The notes: a model not told the origin generated them from the sequence alone. 64,000 nt of DNA from a virus (IMGVR_UViG_3300025886_000011:10357-74356); one strand, 5' to 3'; shown: positions 3,302 through 63,391, counted from the first letter of the stretch. Numbers and translations are program-made.

Positions 3302-3321
3302 TAATAAATCAATTAGATTAT

Positions 3322-9907: not shown

Positions 9908-9929
9908 TAATAAACAAATAATATTTTAA

Positions 9930-11634: not shown

Positions 11635-11659
11635 ACTAAGTATAAACTTTACCATATAA
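11632..11659 (+). promoter_or_regulatory. Middle-type promoter (PolB)
   Basis: TAAAC-N17-ATATAA(AAATAA). Confidence 0.7.
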
Positions 11660-11668
11660 AAATAAAAA

Positions 11669-14426: not shown

Positions 14427-14450
14427 ACAAACCTTATATTTTCTATATAA
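14424..14450 (+). promoter_or_regulatory. Middle-type promoter (uvsX)
   Basis: TAAAC-N16-ATATAA(TAATAA). Confidence 0.7.
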
Positions 14451-14469
14451 TAATAAAATAAAAACAAAT

Positions 14470-15946: not shown

Positions 15947-15971
15947 ACTAAATATAGTTTTTGCTATATAA
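15944..15971 (+). promoter_or_regulatory. Middle-type promoter (helicase)
   Basis: TAAAC-N17-ATATAA(AAATAA). Confidence 0.7.
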
Positions 15972-15982
15972 AAATAAACAAG

Positions 15983-20529: not shown

Positions 20530-20551
20530 GAATATAAACAAAGTCTAATAG

Positions 20552-21526: not shown

Positions 21527-21534
21527 AATATATA
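21527..21534 (+). promoter_or_regulatory. Late-type promoter (658-aa protein)
   Basis: AATATATA. Confidence 0.6.
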
Positions 21535-21555
21535 AAACAAATCAAATTCTATAAT

Positions 21556-23550: not shown

Positions 23551-23587
23551 AAAAGCCGGTAGTAATAATAAACTATCGGCTTTTTTT
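23551..23587 (+). terminator. Rho-independent terminator overlapping the gp55 promoter
   Basis: AAAAGCCGGTAGT-aataataa-ACTATCGGCTTTT(TTT). Confidence 0.85.
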
Positions 23588-23595
23588 GTATATAA
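23569..23595 (+). promoter_or_regulatory. Middle-type promoter (gp55), embedded in a terminator
   Basis: TAAAC-N16-ATATAA(TAATAA). Confidence 0.7.
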
Positions 23596-23615
23596 TAATA
23601 AATAAACATTATGAA

Positions 23616-23981
23616 ATGGCAAGAAAAAGAAATTATTTAAACAATAGAGATCTTTTAGAAGAAATAGTTAAATCTAAAGAATTAGATGAACTAACACCAA
23701 AAGCATTAGAATTCCTAATGTTATTAGCAGACAAATGTTCTAGAAAATTATCATACGCAAACCCTGACGATAGACAAGACTGTATAGCATCTGCTTATAT
23801 GGATTTGTTTAAATATTGGAGAAATTTTAATCCAGAAAAATCAACTAACGCATTTGCGTATTTTACTGAAATATGTAAAAGAGGTTTTGCAAAAGGTTGG
23901 AATAAATTACATCCTAGAAAATATGCAGGTACTGTTTCTATTAACGGTAGTGCTGATAGTGACGGTATTTATACAATATAA
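23616..23981 (+). CDS. gp55: Late-transcription sigma factor (gp55-like)
   Basis: NYLNNRDLL, DCIASA, NFNPEKSTNAFAYFTEI motifs; start moved to ATG 23616. Confidence 0.88.
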   Translation: MARKRNYLNNRDLLEEIVKSKELDELTPKALEFLMLLADKCSRKLSYANPDDRQDCIASAYMDLFKYWRNFNPEKSTNAFAYFTEICKRGFAKGWNKLHPRKYAGTVSINGSADSDGIYTI

Positions 23982-24465: not shown

Positions 24466-25040
24466 TGGCAATAGTAGGATCCTTTCAAGAAGACTTAGAT
24501 ATTTACCTTGCAGATTATAAAGGTAGAGCTGGTGCATCAAAGCAATCAGATAAAGATCTCAAAAAAATTGGTAATAAAGCAAAAGGTATATTGGATAATG
24601 GTAAAATGTATTCATTTGAATATTTTACCCCAGATGAAACTTTTTATGATACTTACCCTTTAGTGTTAGGTTTAGGAAAAAGTGATAATGATCATCAGTT
24701 AGGTTTAAATTTACATTACATCCCGTATGATGCTAGATTACCTTTTTTATCTGATGTATTTAAATCATTCAAAAGTACTATAAGTTCTGCAATAAATAAG
24801 TCACCAGGTAATCCTGATGCACAGCCTAGATTAAGTGAATTTACTTATGACAATTTAAAAAAATCATTAGGTAGAAAATATAATGTTACTTATGCTATTA
24901 GACAATATAGATTAGATAGAATAAGAAAACCGAGGATGTTAGGTTATGAAGATTGGTATATAGGTGCTGTTAACAATCAAAATCATTTCTTTGGAGGAAA
25001 CATTAACGAGGCACAAGCATTATATTACAAGAATATATAA
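24465..25040 (+). CDS. gp2: DNA end protector (gp2-like)
   Basis: MYSFEY, YDTYPLV, GLNLHYIP motifs; adjacent to gp4. Confidence 0.8.
   Translation: MAIVGSFQEDLDIYLADYKGRAGASKQSDKDLKKIGNKAKGILDNGKMYSFEYFTPDETFYDTYPLVLGLGKSDNDHQLGLNLHYIPYDARLPFLSDVFKSFKSTISSAINKSPGNPDAQPRLSEFTYDNLKKSLGRKYNVTYAIRQYRLDRIRKPRMLGYEDWYIGAVNNQNHFFGGNINEAQALYYKNI
25032..25039 (+). promoter_or_regulatory. Late-type promoter (portal)
   Basis: AATATATA. Confidence 0.6.
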
Positions 25041-26728: not shown

Positions 26729-26736
26729 AATATATA
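26729..26736 (+). promoter_or_regulatory. Late-type promoter (protease and MCP)
   Basis: AATATATA. Confidence 0.6.
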
Positions 26737-26756
26737 AATCAAATAACTACTAGAAA

Positions 26757-30489: not shown

Positions 30490-30497
30490 AATATATA
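30490..30497 (+). promoter_or_regulatory. Late-type promoter (389-aa protein and metallothionein-like peptide)
   Basis: AATATATA just after the MCP terminator. Confidence 0.6.
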
Positions 30498-30516
30498 AAA
30501 AAATCAATAACTAGAT

Positions 30517-33069: not shown

Positions 33070-33097
33070 TGAAACAAATGCTATTTTTTCCATATAA
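33070..33097 (+). promoter_or_regulatory. Middle-type promoter (clamp loader)
   Basis: TGAAAC-N16-ATATAA(AAATAA). Confidence 0.7.
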
Positions 33098-33115
33098 AAA
33101 TAAATCAAACTAAAT

Positions 33116-34734: not shown

Positions 34735-34886
34735 CAGAAGAATTTTTAGAAAAACTTATAATTAAATATCCTAATTTCATGGAGCTAGGTGCAGCTGTTA
34801 CCAGATATAAGTCACTTCTTAATGATGGAATAGATATAAAAGAAATTGAAAAACAAACTTTATCAGGTTCTTTCAGAACTCTGTAA
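34731..34886 (+). CDS. Small hypothetical protein (51 aa)
   Basis: ATG overlaps the upstream stop (ATGA); MTEEFLEKLIIKYPNF...; fills the intergenic gap. Confidence 0.55.
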   Translation: MTEEFLEKLIIKYPNFMELGAAVTRYKSLLNDGIDIKEIEKQTLSGSFRTL

Positions 34887-34919
34887 AACTTGTTATATTT
34901 TAATTAAACACTACATAAT

Positions 34920-37260: not shown

Positions 37261-37268
37261 AATATATA
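37261..37268 (+). promoter_or_regulatory. Late-type promoter (membrane protein and neck)
   Basis: AATATATA. Confidence 0.6.
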
Positions 37269-37287
37269 AACAAATAATGTTTGTATT

Positions 37288-39683: not shown

Positions 39684-39691
39684 AATATATA
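39684..39691 (+). promoter_or_regulatory. Late-type promoter (terminase operon)
   Basis: AATATATA. Confidence 0.6.
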
Positions 39692-39708
39692 TTACAAATA
39701 ACTTACTA

Positions 39709-45659: not shown

Positions 45660-45675
45660 GAGGAAACTAAATAAG

Positions 45676-45683
45676 AATATATA
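45676..45683 (+). promoter_or_regulatory. Late-type promoter (tube)
   Basis: AATATATA. Confidence 0.6.
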
Positions 45684-45701
45684 AAAAAAATAAAATAAAC
45701 T

Positions 45702-46283: not shown

Positions 46284-46310
46284 AAAACTGGCTCTAGGGC
46301 CAGTTTTTTT
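46284..46310 (+). terminator. Rho-independent terminator
   Basis: AAAACTGGC-tctagg-GCCAGTTTT(TTT). Confidence 0.88.
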
Positions 46311-46321
46311 ATCTTCACTCT

Positions 46322-46329
46322 GATATATA
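46322..46329 (+). promoter_or_regulatory. Late-type promoter (GIY-YIG/RHH and gp26)
   Basis: GATATATA after a terminator. Confidence 0.55.
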
Positions 46330-46353
46330 TTATAAATTATATAATCTAAACAT

Positions 46354-52396: not shown

Positions 52397-52432
52397 ATTG
52401 TTAATAACTTTTAGAAAAAAGATCTCATTTTA

Positions 52433-52472
52433 TTTTCAATTCCCAATTAAATTGATTATATTTATAATATAA
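52433..52472 (+). promoter_or_regulatory. Putative early promoter, copy 1
   Basis: TTTTCAATTCCCAATTA-N5-ATTATATTTATAATATAA; 34/40 identical to 62160-62199. Confidence 0.65.
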
Positions 52473-52487
52473 TTAAACAAACGGAAT

Positions 52488-52784
52488 ATGTCTAAATATC
52501 AAGAACTACTACAAAATCCTCCACGGTTAACCGTAAAGAAAGAAGCAAGAGAGGTAATTATTAAGACGGTAAGTTGTATGTGTGACAATGTACATTACCT
52601 TAAACTTAAGAAAAATTCAGAGGGTGATTTTAAAATGTCAGGTGGCGGATTTGCTTTATCTAATTGGCAAATGAAACATACATCACATGACATCGAATGG
52701 ATCGCTGATGAAGGTAAGTGGAATCAGGTATTTAGAATGATTAATACCGGGACAGAAAAAATTGAATCTTTAAAAAGTAGATAA
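52488..52784 (+). CDS. Hypothetical early protein
   Basis: 98 aa ORF directly after the putative early promoter. Confidence 0.65.
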   Translation: MSKYQELLQNPPRLTVKKEAREVIIKTVSCMCDNVHYLKLKKNSEGDFKMSGGGFALSNWQMKHTSHDIEWIADEGKWNQVFRMINTGTEKIESLKSR

Positions 52785-53017
52785 TGGCAATAACAACAAA
52801 ACCAATGCCTGGATCTGAAAGAATCCATGTAGACTTAAGCGGACCAGACGGTAATGCATTTGCATTAATTGGATTGGCTCAAAAATTAGCAAAACAACTT
52901 CACTATCAACCTGATGAAAGAGGAGAACTCACAACAGAAATGATGGGTGGAGATTACGATAACCTGTTAGAAATCTTTGATAAGCATTTCGGAGAATTTG
53001 TAACATTACATAAATAA
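52784..53017 (+). CDS. Hypothetical phage protein (DLSGPDGNAF type)
   Basis: 77 aa ORF; stop/start coupled. Confidence 0.7.
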   Translation: MAITTKPMPGSERIHVDLSGPDGNAFALIGLAQKLAKQLHYQPDERGELTTEMMGGDYDNLLEIFDKHFGEFVTLHK

Positions 53018-53018
53018 T

Positions 53019-53204
53019 ATGAAAGAACCGACACCATACCGAATGATCACCGAAGAAGAACACATTGAAGAAATTCTAACAGAAGCATCTGCTTTTGGCT
53101 TAAGAGCCGAAGTAAAACAGTATGCTGAAAACTTATTAGATGAATCTCCAGAGATGGATCCAATTGATGCCTATACTCATGGGTTTGAGGAGTGGATTAA
53201 ATAA
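53019..53204 (+). CDS. Hypothetical acidic protein
   Basis: 61 aa ORF in a tightly packed operon. Confidence 0.6.
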   Translation: MKEPTPYRMITEEEHIEEILTEASAFGLRAEVKQYAENLLDESPEMDPIDAYTHGFEEWIK

Positions 53205-53207
53205 ACT

Positions 53208-53351
53208 ATGGAAAAAGACAACGAAGGCAAAAAACTGAAAGAAGTTAAGTTAACTCAACAAGAATGGTTTGATGCTCTTCGTGTTCCAACACCTATAAGA
53301 AATAAAAAAAAGTATAGGAGAAAGAAAAAACATAAAGGTAAAGATGATTAA
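53208..53351 (+). CDS. 47-aa protein with ArfA-like basic tail (absent from ORF track)
   Basis: MEKDNEGKKLKEVKLTQQEWFDALRVPTPIRNKKKYRRKKKHKGKDD*. Confidence 0.65.
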   Translation: MEKDNEGKKLKEVKLTQQEWFDALRVPTPIRNKKKYRRKKKHKGKDD

Positions 53352-53610
53352 TAGCGGTAAAGAATGGGCTTGGATGGATAACAATCAAAAGTTAAAAAAA
53401 TCAATGGAGTTAGAAGAAAGAAGAGATGAGATGAAATGGGTAGAAAAAGTTTTAACTCACAAAGATAATAAAGGTATACATTATCCGGCGCTCAAACAGC
53501 TTATTAATCTTTATCATAACAAATGGGCAAATAAAACTAAAGAGTCAAGGCTCGTGGATATTTACCGTCAATATCTTAAGTCAATTTTAAGGAGTGAATT
53601 TGGTAGGTAA
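53344..53610 (+). CDS. Hypothetical protein
   Basis: 88 aa ORF. Confidence 0.6.
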   Translation: MINSGKEWAWMDNNQKLKKSMELEERRDEMKWVEKVLTHKDNKGIHYPALKQLINLYHNKWANKTKESRLVDIYRQYLKSILRSEFGR

Positions 53611-53611
53611 T

Positions 53612-53638
53612 TAAACCTTTTAAAATTTTTCAATATAA
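53612..53638 (+). promoter_or_regulatory. Middle-type promoter (topoisomerase)
   Basis: TAAAC-N16-ATATAA(AAATAA). Confidence 0.7.
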
Positions 53639-53653
53639 AAATAAATCTAAAGA

Positions 53654-55531
53654 ATGGCAGTAAGCATTGAAAAGAAATATCAGAAACTTACAGATACAGA
53701 ACATGTATTACTTAGACCAGGTATGTACATTGGTTCTGTTAAACCTCATACTGAAGAAGTTTATCTTTTAGATAGAAGGAGTTGGAAATTGGTACCTAAA
53801 GAACTTACCTATAATCCAGGTTTCTTAAAACTCTTTGATGAGATCGTATCCAATTCGGTTGATGAACATAAAAGAAATCCTAAGCTTAATCAAGTAAAAG
53901 TTACTATTGATATTTCTACAAATAAAATATCCATTTGGGATAACGGTGGAATTCCTGTAGAAATTCATAAAAAGTATAATGAGTGGGTACCTGAAATGAT
54001 TTTCAGTAATTTGAAAACTGGAAGTAATTTTGACGATACTGAAGAAAGAACCGTCGTAGGAACAAATGGCGTAGGTAGTACATTAACAAATATTTTTAGT
54101 AAAGAATTTACAATTGACACATGTGATAAGAAGAAAAGATTTACCCAAACCTTTTCAAATAATATGGCAAAGAAAACTAAACCTGCCATAAAATCACAGA
54201 AGAAAGGATTTACTGAAATTTCATACATTGCAGATTTTAAAAGATTTGGTATGAGTAAGATTGACAAAGCTTCAATTCAAATGATTGAAAAAAGGCTCTA
54301 TGATATTGCTGCATGTAATCCTAAATTAAAAATCTGGTTAAATGAAGATCCTATTACTTTTAAATCTTTTAAAGAATACTCTGAATTATATACCACTCCA
54401 GTATTTTATGAGCAATCAGAAAATTGGCAAATAGGTATAGGTCATTCTACTTCAGGATTTAAAGCAATCTCATTTGTAAATTCTGTTGAAACAAAAGATG
54501 GCGGTAAGCATGTAGATAACATTACTTGGCAAATTACACAATTCCTTAGGGATAAGATTAAAAGAAAGCATAGAGTTGATGTAAAGCCATCAGAACTAAA
54601 AAATCACTTATACCTTTTTATTAATAGTACAATTATTAACCCAGCCTTTTCGTCTCAAACAAAAGAGAAGCTTATTACTGAACCTAAAGACTTCGGTAGT
54701 ATTCATGTACTTTCTGATAAGACATTAAGACAAGTTTTAAATTCAGAAATAATTCAATCAGTATTAGATTGGATTAAACAGAAGCAAGCTGCTGATGAAA
54801 GATCTAAACTTAGAAAATTAAATAAAGGTTTAGATAAGAAAAAGGTTGTAAAATTAATTGATGCAAAAAAGAGAGGTGATAGAAGCAACTGTACTCTTGC
54901 AATCTTTGAAGGGGATTCTGCATCATCTGCATTTAGGCAATATAGAAATCCTAATATGCAAGGCGCATTTCCACTTAGAGGTAAATTTGTAAATGTAAGA
55001 GAATCTATTCCTTCTAAGGTTGTACAAAACAAAGAAGTACAATCTCTTATGGCTGCATTAGGTTTAAAGATAGGTCATGAACCTAAAGATTTAAGATACG
55101 GTAAAATATTATTGTATACTGATGCTGATGTAGATGGTAATTCTATTTCTGCTTTGTTAATTAATTTCTTAGGTAAATATTGGCCAGAATTATTTGAACA
55201 AGGTAGAGTCTTAAAGGTAGAAACTCCTCTTATGGTTGCTAAGAAAGGTAAAGAGACATTGAGTTTTTATTCTGATGATAATTATAAAGAATGGGAATCT
55301 AAACAAAGATCATTATCATCTTGGTCAATTGAATATAAGAAAGGTCTTGCTGCCCTGGAGAATGAAGAGTACCAGGAAATCATTAGTAATCCTAAAACCT
55401 TTACTTTAACTAAAGGCAAAGATTTTGATAATACATTAGATACATGGTTCTCCAAAGATTCTGAACCAAGAAAGAAAAAGATTCTAGGAGAAGAATTAAT
55501 TTATAAGACAAGCGATAAATCATTATTTTAA
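53654..55531 (+). CDS. gp39: Type IIA topoisomerase ATPase/TOPRIM subunit (gp39+gp60 in one ORF)
   Basis: HVLLRPGMYIG, EI..NSVD, DNG.GIP, GTNGVG, EGDSA, PLRGK, DADVDG. Confidence 0.93.
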   Translation: MAVSIEKKYQKLTDTEHVLLRPGMYIGSVKPHTEEVYLLDRRSWKLVPKELTYNPGFLKLFDEIVSNSVDEHKRNPKLNQVKVTIDISTNKISIWDNGGIPVEIHKKYNEWVPEMIFSNLKTGSNFDDTEERTVVGTNGVGSTLTNIFSKEFTIDTCDKKKRFTQTFSNNMAKKTKPAIKSQKKGFTEISYIADFKRFGMSKIDKASIQMIEKRLYDIAACNPKLKIWLNEDPITFKSFKEYSELYTTPVFYEQSENWQIGIGHSTSGFKAISFVNSVETKDGGKHVDNITWQITQFLRDKIKRKHRVDVKPSELKNHLYLFINSTIINPAFSSQTKEKLITEPKDFGSIHVLSDKTLRQVLNSEIIQSVLDWIKQKQAADERSKLRKLNKGLDKKKVVKLIDAKKRGDRSNCTLAIFEGDSASSAFRQYRNPNMQGAFPLRGKFVNVRESIPSKVVQNKEVQSLMAALGLKIGHEPKDLRYGKILLYTDADVDGNSISALLINFLGKYWPELFEQGRVLKVETPLMVAKKGKETLSFYSDDNYKEWESKQRSLSSWSIEYKKGLAALENEEYQEIISNPKTFTLTKGKDFDNTLDTWFSKDSEPRKKKILGEELIYKTSDKSLF

Positions 55532-55533
55532 AT

Positions 55534-56877
55534 ATGAGTAAGAGAACAGTAACAGATTTTTTTGATAAGGAGTATCTTGAATATGCTAAGTATGTTGTAG
55601 AGAATAGAGCTATACCTAGTTGCATTGATGGATTAAAGCCTACACAAAGAAAGGTAGTTTATATTGCAAACAAAATTTGGAAAAGCGGTAATGAAAAACC
55701 TATGAAACTTTTTCAACTTGCAGGTAGAGTAGCGGCTGAGGCATATTACCACCATGGTAATACATCTTTGGAATCTTCTATGGTAGGTATGGCACAAGGT
55801 TTTAAAAACTCATTACCTCTTTTAGATGGGATAGGTCAATTCGGTTCTTTAAGATCTCCATCCGCAGGTGCACCTCGTTATATTAGTGGAAAGTTACACC
55901 CTAACTTTAGATTACTTTATAAGGATTTTGAATTATTAGAAAATAAAATAGAAGAAGGTGAAAAAATTGAACCTGAGTATTTCTTACCTATTATACCAAC
56001 TGTAATTTTAAACGGTTCATCCGGTATTGCTGTAGGTTTTGCTACAAATATTTTAAATAGAAATCCTAACGATGTTGTTAATGCATGCATCGCTGTTCTT
56101 AAAGGTAAAAAGATGCCAGTCTTAGCACCTTGGTTAAAAGAGTTTAGCGGCACTTTTACCAGAGATACGGTTAATCCAAAAACATGGAAGATAAGTGGTT
56201 TATATGAGGTGCTAAACACAACAACCGTCAAAGTAACTGAAATTCCTCCAGGTTTTACATACGAAAGATATGAAGAGCATTTAAATAACTTAACTGAAAA
56301 AAGAATCATATCAGGATACGATGATAATTCATCAGGACAAGTAGAATATGTACTTAAGTTCCAAAGGGCTATTCTTAAGGATTATGTAAGTAGAAATAAA
56401 TTAGAAGCATTATTAAAAATTAATACACAAGAAACTGAAAATCTTACAACAATAGATGAAAACGGTAAACTTAAAATTTTTAATAAAGTAGAAGAAATAG
56501 TTAACCACTTCGTAGAAGTAAGATTAAAATGGTATGATGCAAGAAAGGCTTATCTGATTGCAAAGTTAGAGAGAGAATTACTTATCATTTCAAATAAAGC
56601 AAGATTCATAAAAGATATTATTGATGGTAAACTTAAAGTAAACAACATCCCTAAGAAAACTATTATTCTTTACTTGCAAACTGCAGATTATGATGAAGTA
56701 GATGGTTCTTATAATTACCTTCTTAATATGCCTATCTATTCATTAACTAAAGAAAGATTTGAAGATTTATTAAGACAAGAAGCAGAAAAGAAAGCAGAGA
56801 AGAAAATCATTGAAGGTACTAATCCTAAAGACATGTATCTTTCTGATTTAGAAACTTTAAAGAAAGCAATAAAATAA
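55534..56877 (+). CDS. gp52: Type IIA topoisomerase cleavage subunit
   Basis: DGLKPTQRK, YHHG..S, APRYI (catalytic Tyr), NG..GIAVGFAT. Confidence 0.93.
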   Translation: MSKRTVTDFFDKEYLEYAKYVVENRAIPSCIDGLKPTQRKVVYIANKIWKSGNEKPMKLFQLAGRVAAEAYYHHGNTSLESSMVGMAQGFKNSLPLLDGIGQFGSLRSPSAGAPRYISGKLHPNFRLLYKDFELLENKIEEGEKIEPEYFLPIIPTVILNGSSGIAVGFATNILNRNPNDVVNACIAVLKGKKMPVLAPWLKEFSGTFTRDTVNPKTWKISGLYEVLNTTTVKVTEIPPGFTYERYEEHLNNLTEKRIISGYDDNSSGQVEYVLKFQRAILKDYVSRNKLEALLKINTQETENLTTIDENGKLKIFNKVEEIVNHFVEVRLKWYDARKAYLIAKLERELLIISNKARFIKDIIDGKLKVNNIPKKTIILYLQTADYDEVDGSYNYLLNMPIYSLTKERFEDLLRQEAEKKAEKKIIEGTNPKDMYLSDLETLKKAIK

Positions 56878-56879
56878 AT

Positions 56880-56906
56880 TAAACCTTTTAAGAAATAACA
56901 ATATAA
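56880..56906 (+). promoter_or_regulatory. Middle-type promoter (KTSC/NMP kinase operon)
   Basis: TAAAC-N16-ATATAA(AAATAA). Confidence 0.7.
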
Positions 56907-56920
56907 AAATAAACAATATT

Positions 56921-57076
56921 ATGACTAAATTTAAGTTCACAACAAAGGGCGGTGCTCAAGTAATAGCATGTGAAACCGATAGTGAAAATAAAGCATGGGA
57001 ATGGATATCGCAAACTAAGCAGTTAACAGTAAAGCAAGCTAAAGATCTTTATAATATTATAAAAATAAAAAAATGA
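56921..57076 (+). CDS. Small hypothetical protein (51 aa)
   Basis: ATG 14 nt after a middle-type promoter; stop overlaps the next ATG. Confidence 0.6.
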   Translation: MTKFKFTTKGGAQVIACETDSENKAWEWISQTKQLTVKQAKDLYNIIKIKK

Positions 57077-57300
57077 TGATAGAACAAAACTCCTCAGTAG
57101 ACTCTTCAATGATAAACAGAGTCATTTACAATTTTCCTAACAAGTCTTTAAAGATTGAATTTAATTCTGGTGCACTTTATGAATATAATAACGTAGAACC
57201 GGATGTTTATGACAATTTATGTAAAGCCGAATCTCAAGGTAAATTCTTTAACGAGCAAATAAAAAATAATTACGATCACACTCAACTTTTAATAAATTAA
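57073..57300 (+). CDS. KTSC-domain protein
   Basis: VDSSMI..Y..L.IEF.SG..YEY..V..Y..L..AES.GKFFN..IK..Y. Confidence 0.9.
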   Translation: MMIEQNSSVDSSMINRVIYNFPNKSLKIEFNSGALYEYNNVEPDVYDNLCKAESQGKFFNEQIKNNYDHTQLLIN

Positions 57301-57302
57301 AT

Positions 57303-57533
57303 ATGGAAACACCAAACATTATGTATGATGCCCTTAAGGCACAGTTCGTAGCACAGAAACAAAAAGCAATTGCTACAATCACAGTATATTTAACCAGCCC
57401 AGTAGGAATTGGGGAACACCCACAGCTTATCGATGAAATGGTTGAACAAACTAAACTCTTAGCAGAAGCTAATGATTGTATTGAAACTTTACAAAAAACC
57501 TTTGAAGTAAAAGATAAAGAAAAGGTGGATTAA
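57303..57533 (+). CDS. Hypothetical helical-hairpin protein
   Basis: 76 aa; GIGEHPQ turn. Confidence 0.65.
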   Translation: METPNIMYDALKAQFVAQKQKAIATITVYLTSPVGIGEHPQLIDEMVEQTKLLAEANDCIETLQKTFEVKDKEKVD

Positions 57534-57535
57534 CT

Positions 57536-57649
57536 ATGATGGAATTTTTAGAGTTCACATTTAGTTCTATTTGGCATTTTCTTGGTATCCTAATTTTAAT
57601 AGGAGTAGTCGGTAGCATAATTCCTAATATTAACATTAATAAAAAATGA
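57536..57649 (+). CDS. 37-aa single-pass membrane peptide
   Basis: MMEFLEFTFSSIWHFLGILILIGVVGSIIPNININKK*; stop overlaps the next ATG. Confidence 0.55.
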   Translation: MMEFLEFTFSSIWHFLGILILIGVVGSIIPNININKK

Positions 57650-58125
57650 ATAAAATAATTTTAGTAGGTAAAGGTGCTGCTGGTAAAGATCATATGAGAA
57701 AAATTCTTAGTGGTAGAGGTTTTCAGTATGGTATTTCATACACGACTCGACCTCCTAGGGATGGTGAAATTGATGGTAAGGATTATTTCTTTTTAACAGA
57801 AGAAGATTTTAAAAGAAAAATCAATCAAGGGTATTGGTATGAATGGATAGAATTTAATGGATGGTATTATGGTACAAGCCAAAGACAGTTTACTATAAGC
57901 TGTAACCTTTTTATTATGACACCTAAAGGTATAAGTCATATTGACCCTGTAGATAGAAAAGAATGTACAATAATCTATCTTAATGTAGATGAAAAGATTA
58001 GGCGTAATCGATTAATTAAAAGAGAAATGCCTGGTGATTCAATAGACAGGAGAATGATTGCAGATGCAAAAGACTTTAAAGATTTTACAGATTTTGATAT
58101 TGAAATAAACAATTCTACTTTTTAA
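57646..58125 (+). CDS. Guanylate kinase-like NMP kinase
   Basis: GKGAAGKD, YTTRPPR.GE.DG.DY.F, FNGWYYGT. Confidence 0.88.
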   Translation: MNKIILVGKGAAGKDHMRKILSGRGFQYGISYTTRPPRDGEIDGKDYFFLTEEDFKRKINQGYWYEWIEFNGWYYGTSQRQFTISCNLFIMTPKGISHIDPVDRKECTIIYLNVDEKIRRNRLIKREMPGDSIDRRMIADAKDFKDFTDFDIEINNSTF

Positions 58126-58133
58126 CTATATAA
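58106..58133 (+). promoter_or_regulatory. Middle-type promoter (dNMP kinase and dCMP hydroxymethylase)
   Basis: TAAAC-N17-ATATAA(AAATAA). Confidence 0.7.
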
Positions 58134-58143
58134 AAATAAACAC

Positions 58144-58743
58144 ATGAGCAAATTTATTATCATTGAAGGTACAGATAATACAGGTAAAGATACCCAGCAA
58201 AATCTAATTATTGAAAAATTACATAACCTAGTCTTTCATAAGCTTCACTATTCTTCATTACCTTTTAAAGATGATGTAGAAAAACATGTTAATTATTCTA
58301 CTAAAATGTATAATGATATGTTTAAAATGATGGTAAATAATAAAGATGCTGATATTAATATGATTTTTAATAGATCTCATTTAGGTGAATCTGTTTACTC
58401 TCCTCTTTATAGAAATTATTCAGGTGATTATATTTTTAATATTGAAAAAGAGTATGTTAATCAACTAAGAAAAGAATTATATTTAATTACCTTAACTAAT
58501 GATCCTCATACAATTTTAAAACGAGATGATGGCAAATCATTCTATGGTAATGAAGAAGAAGTTAAAGCCGAAGTTGATGGATTTAACAGAGCTCATAGAT
58601 TAAGTAAGATTAAAAATAAACTAAATATTAATATAGGTACAATGAGCGCAGATGAAGTATCTCATATCATAATTGATTTTCTAAAACATGAAAATTCTAT
58701 TAGTGGTGTTGCTGAACAACTAAATATGTTTACTGATGTGTAA
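58144..58743 (+). CDS. Thymidylate-kinase-like dNMP kinase (probable hm-dCMP kinase)
   Basis: IIEGTDNTGKDT, FNRSHLGE.VY; co-transcribed with the dCMP hydroxymethylase. Confidence 0.8.
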   Translation: MSKFIIIEGTDNTGKDTQQNLIIEKLHNLVFHKLHYSSLPFKDDVEKHVNYSTKMYNDMFKMMVNNKDADINMIFNRSHLGESVYSPLYRNYSGDYIFNIEKEYVNQLRKELYLITLTNDPHTILKRDDGKSFYGNEEEVKAEVDGFNRAHRLSKIKNKLNINIGTMSADEVSHIIIDFLKHENSISGVAEQLNMFTDV

Positions 58744-58921
58744 AGCAGAAGATTTATTATACGAGGCTCACCATGAAGGTATTAGAGATGAGGTTCTTGC
58801 TGAGAGCCGTCGATTATATCAGGATAAAAAGAAGTATGAACACATGGAGTTTGGTGATAGAATAGAAATAGCACTAAGAAATGTTAGAGAGAATAAATTA
58901 CAAAGTAAATTAAAAAAATGA
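58736..58921 (+). CDS. Hypothetical protein
   Basis: 61 aa ORF coupled to both neighbours. Confidence 0.55.
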   Translation: MCKAEDLLYEAHHEGIRDEVLAESRRLYQDKKKYEHMEFGDRIEIALRNVRENKLQSKLKK

Positions 58922-59829
58922 GAGTATTTAAAGGAGAGACTTTTGCAGAAGCATACAACTATGCTCTAAGTAGTATTATACATAATCCTACATACATATC
59001 ATCCCCTAGAGGTATGAAGATATTTGAAATGACTGATGCAGCGATCGTTGTAGAAGATCCTACATATTGTCTTTATGAAAATGATCGTAGGAGTAGTCAA
59101 TTTAAATATATTGCAGCAGAATTGGTTTGGTATTTTACTGGCCGTAATGATGCTGACTTTATTACACCGTATGCAAAGTTCTGGGATCAAATTAAAAATA
59201 AAGACGGTACTGTTAACTCTGCTTATGGTAATCTTATCTTTACCGAAGAATTAGAAGATGGTCGTAATCAATATCGATGGGCATTAGATTCCTTAATTCA
59301 AGATAAAGATTCAAGGCAAGCAATTATACATTTTAATAAGCCCTCTCATCAATGGAATGGAAATAGAGATTTTGTTTGTACTCTTAATGGCATATTTCAA
59401 ATAAGAGATAATAAATTAAACTTTACTATTGATATGAGATCTAACGATCTTATATTAGGTACTCCTACTGATGTTGCATTCTTTTGTCTTTTACAAATTC
59501 AAATGTTAGAGCATCTTCGTAATCATTACCCTGAATTAGAATTAGGTACATATACTCATATTGCACATTCGCTTCATTTATATGAAAGGCACTTCGATCT
59601 TGCAAGCGAGATGTTAATGAAATCGTTTAATCCTCAATCATTTCCAAATATGACAGAGTTTTTAATTGATCCTAACGGTAAATCATTAGATGGTTTAAAA
59701 CAATTAGAAGATGAAATGATTCAGAGTAATGATGTTGTATTTAAAGGAAAATCTAATTTTGAACCACAACCTCATGATGATCTTTTACATCAGTGGATAT
59801 CCGACGCAATTTTTAATAAAGCCCTTTAA
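58918..59829 (+). CDS. gp42: dCMP hydroxymethylase (T4 gp42-like thymidylate synthase superfamily member)
   Basis: ELVWY, NSAYG, DSRQA, DFVCT (catalytic Cys) and MRSNDLILGTPTD, with Asp at the position that is Asn in dUMP-specific TS (T4 gp42: DFMCT, MRSNDVVFGFRND). Confidence 0.85.
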   Translation: MRVFKGETFAEAYNYALSSIIHNPTYISSPRGMKIFEMTDAAIVVEDPTYCLYENDRRSSQFKYIAAELVWYFTGRNDADFITPYAKFWDQIKNKDGTVNSAYGNLIFTEELEDGRNQYRWALDSLIQDKDSRQAIIHFNKPSHQWNGNRDFVCTLNGIFQIRDNKLNFTIDMRSNDLILGTPTDVAFFCLLQIQMLEHLRNHYPELELGTYTHIAHSLHLYERHFDLASEMLMKSFNPQSFPNMTEFLIDPNGKSLDGLKQLEDEMIQSNDVVFKGKSNFEPQPHDDLLHQWISDAIFNKAL

Positions 59830-59832
59830 AAG

Positions 59833-60705
59833 ATGGTAATAGATACCTTTTTATATTATAATGAAATAGAATTACTTGAATTAAGACTCAAGGTTCTCTA
59901 TGACTACGTTGATCGCTTTGTAATAGTAGAAGGTGATCATACACACAAGGGGGATCCTATCCCCTTTAGGGCTAAAAATGATCTTAAGAAACTAGGATAT
60001 GAAAATGATAGAAAGATACATGTCATCGAAGTAAACCTTAAATCTTTTGATGAAGAACCGGATCCTTGGAAAAGATCGGATCGTGCTAGGAATGCACAAG
60101 CTAGCATATATTCTGACGATGATGATATAGTTATTATTGCAGATATAGATGAATTATGGCATCCTCATTATTTACAACAGCATGTAAGATATTTAAACGA
60201 AAACCCAACTCATGTTTTAATTAATAGATGTTGGGATTTACAAGGCCAAGTTGATTTAGGACTATATGCCAAACATAATAATGAATGTAATTCTAATGCA
60301 CCTTTATTTGCCAAAGGTTCTTTTTGGAAAAAACATTCACCAGCTTCTGCTAGGTGGATATGCGGTTGGGGTGGTAATAAAAAAGATTTTCCTTTTGAAG
60401 TTAATTGGTTTACTGATGTTAAGAAGGGGTGGCATCTTTCTTATATGGGAAATGTTGAAAGAAAGTTATCTAAAATTAATACATCATGTCATTGGGATGA
60501 TGAATGGGTTCCAGGTATTTCTTTCGAATCAGATTATACAAAGAACCGCTTTAAGAATTTTAATGGTAAACCTTTAACAGATGGTAGAGATTTATTAGGT
60601 AGAGAAAATTTTTATATTAAGCCATTTGATTACACTGATCTTTTTGATACGATTGGTGACGGCTCAGATCATTTAAAAGATTGGTTATTAGGTAGAAATA
60701 TATAA
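59833..60705 (+). CDS. GT17-like glycosyltransferase
   Basis: F..YNE.ELLELRL..L..VD.FVIVE..T..G, ADIDEL, GWHLSY. Confidence 0.8.
   Translation: MVIDTFLYYNEIELLELRLKVLYDYVDRFVIVEGDHTHKGDPIPFRAKNDLKKLGYENDRKIHVIEVNLKSFDEEPDPWKRSDRARNAQASIYSDDDDIVIIADIDELWHPHYLQQHVRYLNENPTHVLINRCWDLQGQVDLGLYAKHNNECNSNAPLFAKGSFWKKHSPASARWICGWGGNKKDFPFEVNWFTDVKKGWHLSYMGNVERKLSKINTSCHWDDEWVPGISFESDYTKNRFKNFNGKPLTDGRDLLGRENFYIKPFDYTDLFDTIGDGSDHLKDWLLGRNI
60697..60704 (+). promoter_or_regulatory. Late-type promoter (ATP-grasp protein)
   Basis: AATATATA. Confidence 0.55.
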
Positions 60706-60722
60706 ACAAAATAAAACTTGTT

Positions 60723-62141
60723 TTGAAGTATCTAAAATTATTTGAACAATTCCTAAATGAAAAGAAACCTAAAGGAGCACCAGACTTCCATCATTCTGAT
60801 GCACCTGATGCTGAAGGTAGATTTAAAGATCTTTCTATAAAAGATTTAGCCGCATGGTTAATTAAAACTAGAAAGAAAGATGTTAAAAAAATTAGTGGTT
60901 CTTTAACTCAGCAAATAGTTTTTAACAGAAAGAGTGACCCTAAGTATGCTGAAAAGATGGAGAAAACCAGAAAAGAAGTATATAAACAATTAGGCAGAGA
61001 AGATTTATTAAAAGAATATGTTGTAGAGGTAAAGAAACCTATCGATATTACTGTTGGTGGTAAAGAATATAAGCTTACTAAAAAAGGAAGTAAGATTACT
61101 CTAACTAATACTAAGTTATCCGCTGATAAGTTTATATTTAGAAATGAAAAAGAATTTAAAGAATGGGCTGATGATCAGGTAGAACCTATTGGTGGAACTC
61201 AATCATCTCATTTTGGTATCAGTGAATCAAAGGATAGTGAAAATGGTCTAGGTAAAGTTTATTTAGCATTAAGAGAAGATAGTGGACATAGATGGTGGAC
61301 TTATAAAGGTTTTGCTGGGGATAAGTTTTTTACACAAGTTCATGAAAACAATATGAATGACATTGATATTAATCCAGACTATCCAGTTTTAACCTATCAT
61401 TCAGATACAGTTAATAAACTAATAAAGGCTGGTAAGATTAAAAAAGAAAATGTTTATAATCACCCAGACCACATATCAAAATCTGGATCTAAGGAAGAAT
61501 TCCATAAACTGGTTGGAGAAGATGAAAATATACCTAAGACAGTATATTCTAAGAATGATGCATTAGAGCAATTAGAATTTCCTATTATTGCAAAACCTGC
61601 AGAAGGTCATAGTGGAGAAGGTATTCAAATAATAGAAAAGCCAGATTTAATGGAAGAGGTGGACGAAAAGATTTTTGATACCTTTTCAGAATACATTGAC
61701 AAGGCAGAAGAACATAGGTTTATAAACTTTAAAGGAAAGCCGATTTTTTGGATGGAGAGAACTCCTATAAATGAAAAGGCTAAGTCCGGTAAAGGTAGTG
61801 CTAAAGAAGCTATGGAGTTTGGATATGCTAAAAGAAATATTAAAGATTTACCTAAAGATTATAAAAAAGTATTAGAGAAGTTTTGTAAGATTTATGAAGA
61901 TTTGCCTTATATGTGTTTTGATGTTATGAAAGGTAAAAATGGAAAGGTCTATATTATTGAATCCAATGCTCAGCCTGGAGTACCTTTTGATTCTACTATT
62001 GAAGCTTATAAACATATCTATGAAGATTTTTATAAGAAATCTCTTGACGAAGAAAGTTTAACTAAATTAAATGAATATGCTAAAACTATGATTGAAAAGA
62101 CTCTTAAAAAAGATGGGGGCAAAAGATTTTCAATTAAATAG
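60723..62141 (+). CDS. Late protein with putative head-targeting leader and C-terminal RimK-like ATP-grasp domain (TTG start)
   Basis: MKYLKLFEQFLNE leader; IPKT..PII.KP..GHSGEGI, EYID..EHR, FDV, IESNAQPG. Confidence 0.78.
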   Translation: MKYLKLFEQFLNEKKPKGAPDFHHSDAPDAEGRFKDLSIKDLAAWLIKTRKKDVKKISGSLTQQIVFNRKSDPKYAEKMEKTRKEVYKQLGREDLLKEYVVEVKKPIDITVGGKEYKLTKKGSKITLTNTKLSADKFIFRNEKEFKEWADDQVEPIGGTQSSHFGISESKDSENGLGKVYLALREDSGHRWWTYKGFAGDKFFTQVHENNMNDIDINPDYPVLTYHSDTVNKLIKAGKIKKENVYNHPDHISKSGSKEEFHKLVGEDENIPKTVYSKNDALEQLEFPIIAKPAEGHSGEGIQIIEKPDLMEEVDEKIFDTFSEYIDKAEEHRFINFKGKPIFWMERTPINEKAKSGKGSAKEAMEFGYAKRNIKDLPKDYKKVLEKFCKIYEDLPYMCFDVMKGKNGKVYIIESNAQPGVPFDSTIEAYKHIYEDFYKKSLDEESLTKLNEYAKTMIEKTLKKDGGKRFSIK

Positions 62142-62159
62142 AAAAAAGTTATTCAATAA

Positions 62160-62199
62160 TTTTCAGTTCCCAATTATTTGTATTATATTTATACTATAA
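62160..62199 (+). promoter_or_regulatory. Putative early promoter, copy 2
   Basis: TTTTCAGTTCCCAATTA-N5-ATTATATTTATACTATAA. Confidence 0.65.
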
Positions 62200-62223
62200 C
62201 AGTTAATCTGTAAATAAAAACAT

Positions 62224-62757
62224 ATGCTTAACGATTTAGATATTCCTAAAGATTTTTATATAACTTCTGATACGTGGTTCGGTAGGCCGCAAATACTCCA
62301 AATAGCAAATAGGAGATTTAATGATATAGAAGAAATGAATGCTACTCTCATTAAAAATTGGAATAAAACGATAGGAAAGAATGATATTGTATTTCATCTA
62401 GGTAATTTTGCATGGGATCCACAAACTGCTAGGCAAGTTTTAAAGAAGCTTAATGGTCAAATCTATTTTATGATAGGAAATTCTGATGATGCATTTTTAG
62501 ATGTTCATCATGAATTTGATAATGTATCTGTTTTAGATGATCAAATTCTAGAAATGCCACAATTTGATTCTGTTATTTGCCATTATCCATTAGATGTATG
62601 GAATGGTAAGGATTCCGGTACTATTCATTTTCACGGTCACACTGTATTTTCTCACAAGACAGATTTATCTAAAATGAATAGAGTAAATGTATGTACAGAT
62701 TTTTGGAATTATACACCAGTAAATTATTTAACTATTAAAGATTTTATAAATGAGTAA
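62224..62757 (+). CDS. Calcineurin-like metallophosphoesterase fold, catalytically degenerate
   Basis: SDTW (for SDxH), LGNF (for LGDF), GNSD (for GNHD), HGHTV (for HGHxH); scaffold otherwise typical (EEMN..LI.NWN, CHYP..WN). Confidence 0.8.
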   Translation: MLNDLDIPKDFYITSDTWFGRPQILQIANRRFNDIEEMNATLIKNWNKTIGKNDIVFHLGNFAWDPQTARQVLKKLNGQIYFMIGNSDDAFLDVHHEFDNVSVLDDQILEMPQFDSVICHYPLDVWNGKDSGTIHFHGHTVFSHKTDLSKMNRVNVCTDFWNYTPVNYLTIKDFINE

Positions 62758-63391
62758 AACAAAAAAGAAAACCTACAAAGAATTAGCGATTGAATTTAAA
62801 AAGACTAGAAAAGAAAGTACTTACAATGAACTTTATCACAAGATGAGACCAGGACTATGGTCTTATGTAAATAATATTGTAAAAGATCCAACGATTGCTG
62901 ATGATATTGTATCTACAACTCTTACTACAGTATATTTAAAAATTGATCAATATAATGAAGACTATCAAATAACAACATGGGCGTATCGCATTGCTTATAA
63001 TGAAAGTATAGGATGGATTAGGTTTAGAAATAAAAAAGTAAGTATGAATGTATTTACTGATGCTGGAATAGAACCACCAATGGAATCTTCGATGCCTTCT
63101 ATGAAAGATGGTTTACATTTACCTAAAACTGAATCTGATTGGGAAGAAGAACAATCAACACTTGATGAACAGGTTAGAATGACTCATGAGGCAATAAATG
63201 CATTACCTCCAATGTATAAAAGATTTATGGTAGAAAGATTCTTAAATCATAAATCATATTCTGATATATTGGATATAATGAAAGAGTTTGAAAAAGGAAT
63301 AAACTTACAGACAGTAAAGAATCGAATATTTAGAGGAAGGAAAATAGTTAAAAAACAGCTTCAAGGAATGAAACTGTTTGCCGAAGCCTAA
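62750..63391 (+). CDS. ECF-type sigma-70 factor
   Basis: Region 2 ADDIV...VY.KIDQYN...TTWAYRIAYN and region 4 INALPP.Y..KSY.DI...TVKNRIFRGR. Confidence 0.9.
   Translation: MSKTKKKTYKELAIEFKKTRKESTYNELYHKMRPGLWSYVNNIVKDPTIADDIVSTTLTTVYLKIDQYNEDYQITTWAYRIAYNESIGWIRFRNKKVSMNVFTDAGIEPPMESSMPSMKDGLHLPKTESDWEEEQSTLDEQVRMTHEAINALPPMYKRFMVERFLNHKSYSDILDIMKEFEKGINLQTVKNRIFRGRKIVKKQLQGMKLFAEA

Follow-up and report, generated by a model that had tools for sequence, protein, structure and literature searches.

Sigma cascades are known from phages such as SPO1, in which, as far as the account in PMC13401047 goes, host sigma-A is followed by gp28 for the middle genes and by gp33/gp34 for the late genes. 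In phiEco32, gp36 has sigma-2-like and sigma-4-like domains and reads middle/late promoters, aided by gp79 (PMC12276001). T4 uses MotA/AsiA for its middle tier and gp55, gp33 and the gp45 clamp for late transcription. The -35 element of B. subtilis SigW is TGAAAC, and ECF promoters have spacers of 14-17 bp. Bacteroidota sigma-A promoters consist of a -33 TTTG and a -7 TAnnTTTG box (PMC2483708, PMC9723704), and the ECF promoters of flavobacterial hosts carry CGT (PMC9723704).

The DNA analysed here is a stretch of 64,000 nucleotides (IMGVR_UViG_3300025886_000011:10357-74356; the window) from a contig that makes up ~29% of a phage genome, with ~70% lying outside the sequence at hand. Its source is best explained, taken as a whole and by a modest preference, as a large uncultured marine T4-like phage with a Bacteroidota host. 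An earlier note on this DNA had assumed a Flavobacterium host; the evidence reaches marine Bacteroidota only.

Results

Three promoter-like motif classes were located (Table 1), and the earlier claim that they sort by gene function was confirmed, the predicted promoters setting early, DNA-replication and virion genes apart (Fisher p = 5e-5; 1.5e-3 on a conservative count). The DNA itself shows where the motifs lie, on which strand and with what spacing, how they sort by gene function, which three genes are sigma-like and which promoter class precedes each of these genes.

The class I pair, described before as a 40-bp element at 52433 and 62160, is identical at 34 of 40 positions (52433-52472 vs 62160-62199) and was recovered unprompted by a de novo repeat search as a 61-nt family. 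A third copy (32/40) lies outside the window at genome position 3211, upstream of a second sigma gene. Five cassette copies are present in the contig, the promoters sitting within ~95-nt cassettes, and the core KTTCAR-N17-TATAWTT was found there four times in forward and never in reverse orientation, against 0.13 expected. The cassette at 62139 is conserved in 20+ relatives, with TATATTTG as the -7 box in several. Class I lies upstream of both phage sigma-70-family genes, an arrangement kept in relatives whose sigma is 58-100% identical.

Class II, with the consensus TWAAAC-N16/17-ATATAA-W-AATAAA, is represented by 12 window sites, or 14 over the whole contig, two slightly degenerate ones included, all on the gene strand. 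The 16- or 17-nt spacer, the ATATAA and the WAATAA present after it at 10 of 12 sites in the window agree with the earlier description, but the -35 given there, T(G/A)AAAC, was too narrow (four strict matches); most sites have TTAAAC, GTAAAC or TGAAAC. In the refined form, T(T/G)AAAC-N14/15-C-W-ATATAA-W-AATAAA, AAAC is invariant, and 12 of the 14 sites have a conserved C 14-15 nt past it (p = 2e-9). The -10 is ATATAA preceded by C, without the CGT typical of ECF promoters. AAAC-N15-18-ATATAAWAWTAA was matched 12 times on the + strand and never on the - strand (mean 0.0 in 100 dinucleotide shuffles), 11 of the 12 matches end <=45 nt from a + start, and the class was also recovered by de novo repeat search. 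Leaders are only ~3-16 nt long, the distance to the ATG being variable and the 16/17-nt spacer fixed. Behind these sites lie replication, recombination, nucleotide and DNA-modification genes and gp55. Extended by one base, the -10 (TATATAA) is closer to the primary-sigma TATAAT than to the ECF CGT box.

RATAWATA, which had been placed before structural genes, is not over-represented overall (27 vs 45 expected); the positional part of that claim holds, since 18 of the 27 lie within 50 nt upstream of starts, a zone covering 5.7% of the sequence (p = 1e-16). The real class III consensus is sharper, (G/A)AATATATAA. AATATATA is found at 12 positions on the + strand and at 4 on the - strand; 11 of the 12 sit 17-24 nt 5' of an ATG (p = 2e-13), the genes concerned being mostly virion genes. 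In 2000 trials, shuffled upstream windows contained 2.4 on average and 9 at most. As in T4 late promoters, class III is a single -10-like box with no -35 before virion genes; its sequence differs from the T4 octamer TATAAATA, whose 4 copies on + and 10 on - show no enrichment.

Directly 3' of each of four intrinsic terminators stands a site of class II or class III. RNA-library contigs from three of four runs extend from ~42430 to ~46256, the sheath-tube unit between class III box and terminator; they begin at 42428-42435, just 3' of the sheath box, as contig ends rather than mapped starts, and in one run a contig reads across the sheath promoter. These contigs weakly suggest that the sheath-tube unit is expressed from the class III box.

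Table 1. Predicted promoters, terminators and sigma-related genes in the window.
Feature	Position	Strand	Context
Class III box AATATATAA	2071..2079	+	19 nt 5' of GT2 glycosyltransferase gene
Class III box	2989..2997	+	Upstream of 58-aa gene
Intrinsic terminator	3218..3254	+	Shortly 5' of class II promoter
Class II promoter	3276..3308	+	Upstream of DNA-modification operon (3322-9878)
Class II promoter	9882..9914	+	Upstream of 249-aa probable gp45-like clamp
Class II promoter	11633..11666	+	Upstream of C-terminal half of PolB
Class II promoter	14425..14457	+	Upstream of UvsX
Class II promoter	15945..15978	+	Upstream of DnaB-like helicase and SbcCD
Class III variant AATATAAAC	20531..20539	+	Upstream of tail-sheath-stabiliser-like gene
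Class III box	21527..21535	+	Upstream of gene for 658-aa protein
Class II promoter	23570..23602	+	Upstream of gp55; -35 within terminator hairpin 23552-23592
gp55-type late sigma homolog	23616..23981	+	phrog_234 2.7e-16; PDB 7d7c_F T4 gp55 2.8e-4
Class III box	25032..25040	+	Upstream of portal gene
Class III box	26729..26737	+	Upstream of prohead protease/scaffold and major capsid genes
Class III box	30490..30498	+	Directly 3' of terminator 30445-30479; upstream of 389-aa protein
Class II promoter	33072..33104	+	Upstream of clamp loader
Class I core only	34871..34900	+	TTTCAG-N17-TATATTT, 20 nt 5' of 407-aa exonuclease gene
Class II promoter, variant ATATAAATATAA	36142..36174	+	Upstream of 138-aa and 221-aa hypothetical proteins
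Class III box	37261..37269	+	Upstream of 141-aa and 653-aa proteins
Class III box	39684..39692	+	Upstream of unit with large terminase
Class III variant GATATATAA	42386..42394	+	Upstream of tail sheath gene
Class III box	45676..45684	+	Upstream of tail tube gene
Intrinsic terminator	46285..46315	+	End of sheath-tube unit; RNA-library contig depth drops to ~0
Class III variant GATATATAT	46322..46330	+	3' of terminator 46285-46315; upstream of homing endonuclease and tail genes
Class II promoter, variant without AATAAA	51526..51559	+	Upstream of DNA polymerase exonuclease subunit
Class I early-promoter cassette	52412..52472	+	AGAAAAAAG, TTTCAA-N17-TATATTTA, leader AAACGGAAT; upstream of five small genes (52488-53610)
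Class II promoter	53613..53645	+	Upstream of topoisomerase II subunits
Class II promoter	56881..56913	+	Upstream of small genes and guanylate kinase
Class II promoter	58107..58140	+	Upstream of dNMP kinase-like and thymidylate-synthase-like genes
Class III box	60697..60705	+	Upstream of ATP-grasp protein
Class I early-promoter cassette	62139..62199	+	TTTCAG-N17-TATATTTA; upstream of phosphoesterase-like gene and ECF sigma
Phosphoesterase-like gene, first in ECF sigma operon	62224..62757	+	Gene pair kept even in 462-kb relative LR756500.1
ECF-type sigma, 213 aa (sigma213)	62750..63391	+	Sigma-2 and sigma-4 domains only
150-aa protein, C-terminal hydrophobic helix	63416..63868	+	Just 3' of ECF sigma; membrane-anchored

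Among the gene functions named earlier, clamp loader, PolB, UvsX, helicase, topoisomerase, kinases, exonuclease, gp55 and ECF sigma were recognised again; gp62 was not confirmed, and the 249-aa clamp is a language-model lead only. The placing of the ECF sigma operon behind a host-type (class I) promoter, of gp55 behind class II and of virion genes behind a single-box motif was found as described.

Judged by its sequence, the predicted 62750 product is an ECF (group 4) type sigma. It matches the Pfam models Sigma70_r2 (1.3e-9, 38.1 bits; cut-off 24) and Sigma70_r4_2 (4e-7, 30 bits; cut-off 25.7) and passes the ECF superfamily model TIGR02937 (55.6 vs cut-off 42.9). The best 25 NCBIfam matches listed are ECF-type or generic sigma-70-family models, SigW being the best, and none of these 25 reached its equivalog cut-off; PDB matches are SigW (best, 2.6e-8), a chain deposited as 'RNA polymerase sigma-H factor' and SigE. 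The helix TVKNRIFRGR aligns with TVKTRIHRGR of SigW, and four of the six SigW DNA contacts are kept in this -35 recognition helix (T168, K170, R172 and R175 identical). Because of this SigW-like helix and the ECF-like spacing of the sites, sigma213 is the best candidate reader of class II. Set against the ECF pattern of an AAC -35 and a CGT -10, class II has AAAC, spacing in the ECF range and ATATAA after C, with no CGT. The ECF hallmark of autoregulation was not seen, the sigma213 operon being preceded by class I, not class II. Family searches with the 150-aa protein encoded downstream gave no match, and an anti-sigma role for it would be a guess.

The second sigma gene, 7 kb upstream of the window and behind a conserved class I promoter, encodes a 190-aa RpoD-like protein (sigma190). 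Region 2 matches RpoD, RpoS and SigA chains in the PDB (E = 1e-25), and the alignment shows that the W-W melting residues of primary sigmas are retained. Of the regions of primary/group 1-2 sigmas (1.2, 2, 3 and 4), region 2 and a weak region 4 were recovered, and every equivalog cut-off was missed. There is no fourth motif class for sigma190. The scheme of one sigma per tier in the earlier note finds no support in that form, given this second early sigma and a contig of ~29% of the genome. Host sigma, sigma213, sigma190 and gp55 would form four holoenzymes for three promoter classes, and since sigma190 is present without a motif class of its own, either it or sigma213 may read class II. The gp55 homolog is conserved in 5/5 relatives searched; no gp33 was recognised. 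As the earlier note had reported, MotA and AsiA were not seen: neither AsiA (PF09010) nor MotA (PF09114) gave a six-frame match at E <= 1 in the contig or in a 182-kb syntenic relative (~200 kb, both sequences incomplete).

That 182-kb relative has 15 class II sites, 32 class III sites and 10 class I cores, many of the class III sites preceding ORFs in that half of the contig where a tail-fibre gene and a virion structural gene lie. Exact class II matches number four in LR756500.1, always on the strand of the located genes, and 0 in the Tenacibaculum phages PTm1 and pT24, both of which encode gp55 and lack sigma213; this distribution indirectly favours sigma213 as the reader of class II. LR756500.1 carries a 41% identical sigma213 homolog and two sigma190 homologs, so co-occurrence cannot separate the two sigmas. 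No further sigma was found in 125 kb of additional sequence of a relative.

Discussion

We lean towards the view that the phage runs a three-step relay of sigma factors on the host core RNA polymerase, and infer the pairings of sigma and promoter as follows. Host sigma-A would read class I (TTTCAG-N17-TATATTT(A/G), a 7-8/8 match to TAnnTTTG), which would switch on the small early genes, sigma213 and sigma190. In the second step, the weakest link, sigma213 would read class II and so express the replication, recombination, nucleotide and DNA-modification genes and gp55. By analogy with T4, gp55 would then read the single-box class III, (G/A)AATATATAA, 17-24 nt 5' of virion genes, probably working with the phage clamp. 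Because the contig is only ~29% of the genome, further regulators may lie in the remaining ~70%.

A somewhat unlikely alternative for the second step is that class II is read by sigma190, with its region 2 recognising TATATAA, which is TATAAT-like, and its divergent region 4 reading the AAAC box, while sigma213 controls other things, such as promoters in the unseen genome, host genes or a stress/defence response. Sigma190 is early, with a conserved class I promoter, keeps the W-W residues of primary sigmas and has no other motif class left to it; the class II -10 has no ECF CGT box; and LR756500.1, with its class II sites, has two sigma190 homologs. However, the region 4.2 helix of sigma190 has none of the known primary or ECF -35-reading residues (by alignment, set against E. 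coli sigma-70 residues), and the class II -35 and spacing are what SigW-like helices read, such a helix being found in sigma213. It is less probable still that the host holoenzyme reads class II after redirection by an unrecognised phage activator or appropriator, a MotA/AsiA analogue, with the phage sigmas serving elsewhere. T4 offers the precedent, and many early genes without assigned function and 70% of the genome unseen leave room for such a factor, but homologs of AsiA/MotA were not found in ~200 kb of own and relative sequence, class II lacks the host -7 (TAnnTTTG) and -33 boxes, and this reading would leave both dedicated sigma genes with no targets.

Classes II and III might also be RNA-level signals (processing, leader or translation enhancer) in long transcripts begun elsewhere, a prospect to which we give very little weight. 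The motifs lie very near start codons, with class II leaders of ~3-16 nt, Bacteroidota use A-rich, TAAAA-like translation signals (PMC2483708), and in one run an RNA contig extends across the sheath promoter. Against this, class II consists of two boxes whose 16/17-nt spacer is fixed while their distance to the ATG varies, its -35 resembles an ECF -35, sites stand directly 3' of intrinsic terminators, class III has the form of T4 late promoters in a phage with gp55, and in three runs the RNA contigs begin just 3' of the sheath box.

Class I resembles the Bacteroidota -33/-7 promoter type: its -7 box TATATTTA matches TAnnTTTG at 7/8 positions, that of several relatives (TATATTTG) at 8/8, and the 19-nt gap is common to both (PMC2483708, PMC9723704). 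The -33 box is TTTC(AG) in nearly all copies vs TTTG in the hosts, and class I additionally has the conserved blocks TTCCCAA, AGAAAAAAG and ATTGTTAATAACTTTT, as well as an AACGGAA leader that is likewise conserved. Sigma213 is linked to SigW and its ECF relatives by its best match in PDB and NCBIfam (SigW) and by the conserved recognition helix, and class II, with T(T/G)AAAC, then T-rich sequence and fitting spacing, is like a SigW-type promoter (TGAAAC, spacer 14-17) in this part. The score of 83.5 bits, however, is far below the SigW equivalog cut-off of 209, SigW-type -10 elements are CGTA/CGTC whereas class II has no CGT, and typical ECF systems show autoregulation, absent for sigma213, and an anti-sigma, for which the 150-aa protein would be a conjectural candidate.

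With T4 late transcription the phage shares a gp55 homolog, an A/T-rich single-box motif that has no -35 and lies near virion genes, and a clamp loader and probable clamp placed in the tier preceding the late one. The late box is TATAAATA in T4 vs AATATATAA here, gp55 is shorter (~121 aa), and the middle tier has neither MotA nor AsiA. As in phiEco32 (PMC12276001), once the early phase is over a small two-domain phage sigma would steer host core RNA polymerase towards non-host promoters; phiEco32 uses one sigma and an AATGTA box for middle and late genes, whereas here the classes are separate, with a separate late sigma, and no gp79-like factor is known. The logic of host sigma, phage sigma and late sigma is that of SPO1 as given in PMC13401047, but the proteins are unrelated in detail, the set here being an ECF-type sigma, an RpoD-like mini-sigma and a T4-type gp55, and unlike the SPO1 host, the host phylum has non-canonical promoters. 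The promoter and sigma set of this phage would be a further form of the sigma cascades already known from phages, among them SPO1 and phiEco32.

Phage record, relatives, and host

The 64-kb window has a G+C content of about 30%, and its + strand holds nearly all genes. Completeness of the 76,973-bp record was estimated at about 29% using CheckV, and an assembly break at both ends is probable because the ends sit in collagen-like GXX repeat genes (genome 1-457 and 76300-76973). An IMG/VR relative, G002 (181,663 bp, completeness 65%), is syntenic with window 5304-65136 and then extends another 125 kb; the stretch past the window's end contains early-gene cassettes and, near 114 kb, a tRNA region, while large ORFs with late promoters begin at 126 kb, among them genes for a tail fibre and a virion structural protein. 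Megablast found no close relative among GenBank phages. Identity of the major capsid protein was 57% to that of LR756500.1 (a 462-kb uncultured phage) and 31-37% to those of the Prevotella Lak phages and the Tenacibaculum phages PTm1 and pT24, and at least 16 studies yielded marine metagenomes with the sequence, which was also present in several metatranscriptomes. Given these capsid relatives and the marine occurrence, the host is most likely a marine member of Bacteroidota; the evidence reaches that level only and does not support Flavobacterium, the genus named in the earlier note. The clade is one of abundant marine Bacteroidota phages, kin of Lak and other huge phages.

Replication, nucleotide, and virion genes were identified by PHROGs and Pfam matches (see table). 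The 249-aa product at window 9930, previously read as the clamp, resembled gp45-slide_C clusters in a language-model look-alike search only (score 0.94-0.95) and was left unnamed by Pfam, PHROGs, NCBIfam, and PDB. The name gp62 was withdrawn from the 138-aa product at window 36183, for which sequence searches of the same four databases gave no match naming gp62. Two genes some 14 kb from each other together encode the family B DNA polymerase: genome 6327-7742 matches positions 83-497 of phrog_262 and window 11669-12787 matches positions 498-841, each within a class II unit. Two late genes flank a 21-codon open frame, very rich in cysteine, at window 31695-31760.

Positions of genes and early leader motifs
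Feature	Position	Basis or remark
ECF-type sigma (sigma213)	window 62750-63391	213 aa
gp55 homolog	window 23616-23981	phrog_234
RpoD-like sigma (sigma190)	genome 3270-3842	190 aa
PolB C-terminal half	window 11669	PHROGs/Pfam
UvsX	window 14470	PHROGs/Pfam
DnaB-like helicase	window 15983	PHROGs/Pfam; SbcD/SbcC alongside
Clamp loader	window 33116	PHROGs/Pfam
Exonuclease	window 34920	PHROGs/Pfam
Polymerase exonuclease subunit	window 51599-52396	PHROGs/Pfam
Topoisomerase II subunits	window 53654, 55534	PHROGs/Pfam
Guanylate kinase	window 57646	PHROGs/Pfam
dNMP-kinase-like gene	window 58144	PHROGs/Pfam
Thymidylate-synthase-like gene	window 58918	PHROGs/Pfam
Head closure	window 23989	PHROGs/Pfam
DNA end protector	window 24465	PHROGs/Pfam
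Portal	window 25061	PHROGs/Pfam
Prohead protease/scaffold	window 26757	PHROGs/Pfam
Major capsid	window 28670	PHROGs/Pfam
Large terminase	window 40551	PHROGs/Pfam
Sheath	window 42423	PHROGs/Pfam
Tube	window 45702	PHROGs/Pfam
Leader motif AAACGGAA(A/T)	window 52476-52487; genome ~3255-3269	
Leader motif AAACGGAA(A/T), G002	105140, 106140, 114720, 123975	examples of many

Promoter classes and transcription units

Early cassettes (class I) precede both sigma-70-family genes, two-box sites (class II) precede the gp55 homolog, and single-box sites (class III) precede virion genes. The sorting of motifs by gene function proposed earlier was borne out among units with recognisable function, with 12 replication-type and no virion units for class II and no replication-type and six virion units for class III (Fisher p 5e-5; p = 1.5e-3 if the three enzyme genes of class III are taken as exceptions to it). 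A k-mer enrichment with classes I-III masked left only A-rich translation-region words and no fourth motif class for an extra sigma.

Class II emerged unprompted from a repeat search as families D3, D4, D7, D10, D15, and D18. The pattern AAAC-N15-18-ATATAAWAWTAA had 12 matches on the + strand, 11 of them ending within 45 nt of a + start, and none on the - strand or in 100 dinucleotide shuffles; with two degenerate copies included, the class comprises 14 sites in the contig, 12 of them inside the window. The aligned sites read T(T/G)AAAC, a T-rich spacer, C, W, ATATAA, W, and AATAAA, with 16 or 17 nt of spacer to ATATAA and a C placed 14-15 nt after AAAC in 12 of the 14 (p 2e-9). The strict -35 T[GA]AAAC was too narrow, matching only four times. 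Downstream units are those of the probable clamp, PolB, UvsX, the helicase with SbcCD, the clamp loader, the polymerase exonuclease, the topoisomerase, the DNA-modification operon, gp55, an unknown gene pair, and two kinase units, with a MazG-like, PolB-N, and RNR unit and one small gene outside the window. The exact motif occurs four times in LR756500.1, always on the strand of the located genes, with CGAAAC as the -35 in three sites and ATAAAC in the fourth; PTm1 and pT24, two phages with gp55 but no sigma213 homolog, lack the motif.

The 40-bp pair described earlier is indeed 34/40 identical, and both copies are part of a longer class I cassette in which ATTGTTAATAACTTTT, AGAAAAAAG, TTTCAG, N17, TATATTTA, and a leader with AACGGAA follow in that order. 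A third full copy precedes sigma190, a degenerate copy lies at genome ~2150, and a core-only copy is upstream of the exonuclease gene at window 34920. The core was found four times forward in the contig and 10 times forward in G002, never in reverse; in G002 it lies 18-47 nt upstream of mostly small ORFs. In at least 20 relatives, the cassette before the sigma213 operon is kept as two blocks with a variable spacer between them. The second block is TATATTTG in several of these, matching the Bacteroidota -7 consensus TAnnTTTG, which sits at -12 to -5 in Flavobacterium psychrophilum (PMC9723704). The partner -33 box of Bacteroidota is TTTG (PMC2483708), whereas class I consistently has TTTC. A canonical sigma-70 promoter (TTCCCA-N17-TATAAT) fits the 52433 copy but would put G at the essential -11 in several relatives, and the -33/-7 register was therefore preferred. 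In genes that follow class I cassettes, the leader motif AAACGGAA(A/T) stands immediately ahead of the start codon; it may be a signal, peculiar to early mRNAs, for translation or RNA stability.

For class III, the motif first suggested, RATAWATA, was depleted overall but strongly positional. A sharper form, AATATATA(A), had 12 copies on the + strand and four on the - strand; 11 of those on the + strand stand 17-24 nt ahead of an ATG (p 2e-13), against an average of 2.4 and a highest value of 9 when upstream windows were shuffled 2000 times. With the variants GATATATA and AATATAAAC, 13 sites were counted in the window, preceding virion units (a sheath-stabiliser-like gene, portal, protease and capsid, the terminase unit, sheath, and tube) as well as four unknown units, GT2, a homing endonuclease with tail genes, and an ATP-grasp protein. 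G002 has 32 forward and seven reverse copies, most forward ones 10-34 nt before ORFs and many within its 126-181 kb region of large ORFs, including the tail fibre and virion structural protein. In LR756500.1, the strand of the located genes has 57 copies and the opposite strand 17; one copy lies 32 nt ahead of the capsid gene. The T4 late box TATAAATA was unenriched (four on +, 10 on -, versus 12.9 expected).

Four G+C-rich hairpins followed by T-runs were identified as + strand terminators (3218, 23552, 30445, and 46285), each directly preceding a class II or class III site. In the one before gp55 (23552-23592), loop and stem take in the AAAC -35 box of the class II promoter of gp55, so that termination and initiation signals overlap there. 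In three of four metatranscriptome assemblies, contig coverage was missing over the terminase gene and ran from 42428-42435, about 35 nt past the sheath class III box, to ~46256, slightly short of the terminator; in one run, the sheath promoter was read across. These are contig ends, not mapped 5' ends, and weakly support a sheath-tube unit bounded by the class III box and the terminator. Contig depth over window 42320-46260 in several marine metatranscriptome assemblies greatly exceeded that of the adjacent terminase and tail genes, as would fit a late unit with strong expression.

Sigma-like proteins and promoter recognition

A six-frame search found exactly three Sigma70_r2-bearing proteins in the contig: sigma213, the gp55 homolog, and sigma190; the same search found no additional sigma in G002. 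The ECF-type identity proposed for sigma213 was upheld by Sigma70_r2 and Sigma70_r4_2 matches exceeding the Pfam cut-offs, by the ECF superfamily model, and by ECF families as best NCBIfam matches; its best solved relative is B. subtilis SigW, then a chain deposited as 'RNA polymerase sigma-H factor', then SigE. The gp55 assignment likewise stands (phrog_234 at 2.7e-16; T4 gp55 chain 7d7c_F at 2.8e-4). The sigma190 gene follows a class I cassette some 7 kb before the window starts; the protein matches RpoD, RpoS, and SigA chains in region 2 at E 1e-25, has a weak region 4 and no similarity to sigma213, and is kept in relatives at 74-94% identity. As reported before, neither a MotA nor an AsiA model matched the contig or G002, both records being incomplete. 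Directly after sigma213, a 150-aa protein (63416-63868) without a family match has one C-terminal hydrophobic helix; in position and topology, it resembles membrane-anchored anti-sigma factors, although such a role would be conjecture. The proteins downstream of the two sigmas (169 aa and 150 aa) are not paralogous. LR756500.1 also carries, at 145000-147200, a phosphoesterase-like gene (50% identity) next to a sigma213 homolog (37% identity), which points to an old conserved module.

A single-box motif suits a sigma-2-only protein such as gp55, and a two-box motif requires a sigma-4 domain. From sequence comparisons, we consider it somewhat better than an even chance that sigma213 would read class II, as proposed in the earlier note. 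Its helix TVKNRIFRGR aligns with TVKTRIHRGR of SigW, with four of six DNA-contact residues identical (T168, K170, R172, and R175), and SigW H174 is replaced by F, the residue of E. coli SigE at this position. The SigW -35 is TGAAAC followed by T-rich sequence, like the T(T/G)AAAC and T-rich spacer of class II, and the 16 or 17 nt to ATATAA fall within ECF spacers of 14-17 bp. The conserved C opening the -10 region and the co-occurrence of class II and sigma213 in LR756500.1, with both missing from PTm1 and pT24, were also counted in favour; the lack of CGT in the class II -10, unlike typical ECF promoters, was counted against. The expected +1 would fall about 5-8 nt beyond ATATAA or AATATATAA, and 5 nt beyond TATATTTA.

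Sigma190 is an unlikely reader of class II, even though TATATAA might be read by its region 2, which is primary-sigma-like, the motif search left it without a separate class, and LR756500.1, with class II sites, also has sigma190 homologs. The phyletic pattern fails to separate it from sigma213, since relatives have both or are fragments. Reading through an unknown activator and non-promoter motifs are, even taken jointly, rather improbable. With sigma213 kept as the preferred class II reader, sigma190 might instead take class I, whose TTTCAG-N17-TATATT is also compatible with canonical -35/-10 geometry; this would explain the consistent departure from the host -33 consensus. A relay of three phage sigmas, with sigma190 on class I, sigma213 on the replication tier, and gp55 on the virion tier, would free the whole programme from the host primary sigma, and we regard it as doubtful. 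We know of no description of a relay that joins one host sigma with three from a phage.

Comparison with known phage systems

With three sharp promoter types, three phage sigma-like proteins, and explicit wiring, the system is an unusually clean case. The promoter consensus sequences can be used now to annotate temporal classes in related uncultured phages, and a possible use is as orthogonal sigma/promoter parts for Bacteroidota genetics. T4 late genes use gp55; to our knowledge, MotA/AsiA are missing from T4-like phages other than the T-even group, and the timing of replication genes in those phages is little understood. The SPO1 cascade runs through gp28 and then gp33/34 (PMC13401047), and gp36 of phiEco32 reads middle and late promoters (PMC12276001). 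Phage sigma cascades as such are thus already known (SPO1, phiEco32, T4 gp55); what is new is that a T4-like Bacteroidota phage is predicted to combine an ECF-type sigma with an RpoD-like mini-sigma and gp55, with very clean consensus sequences.
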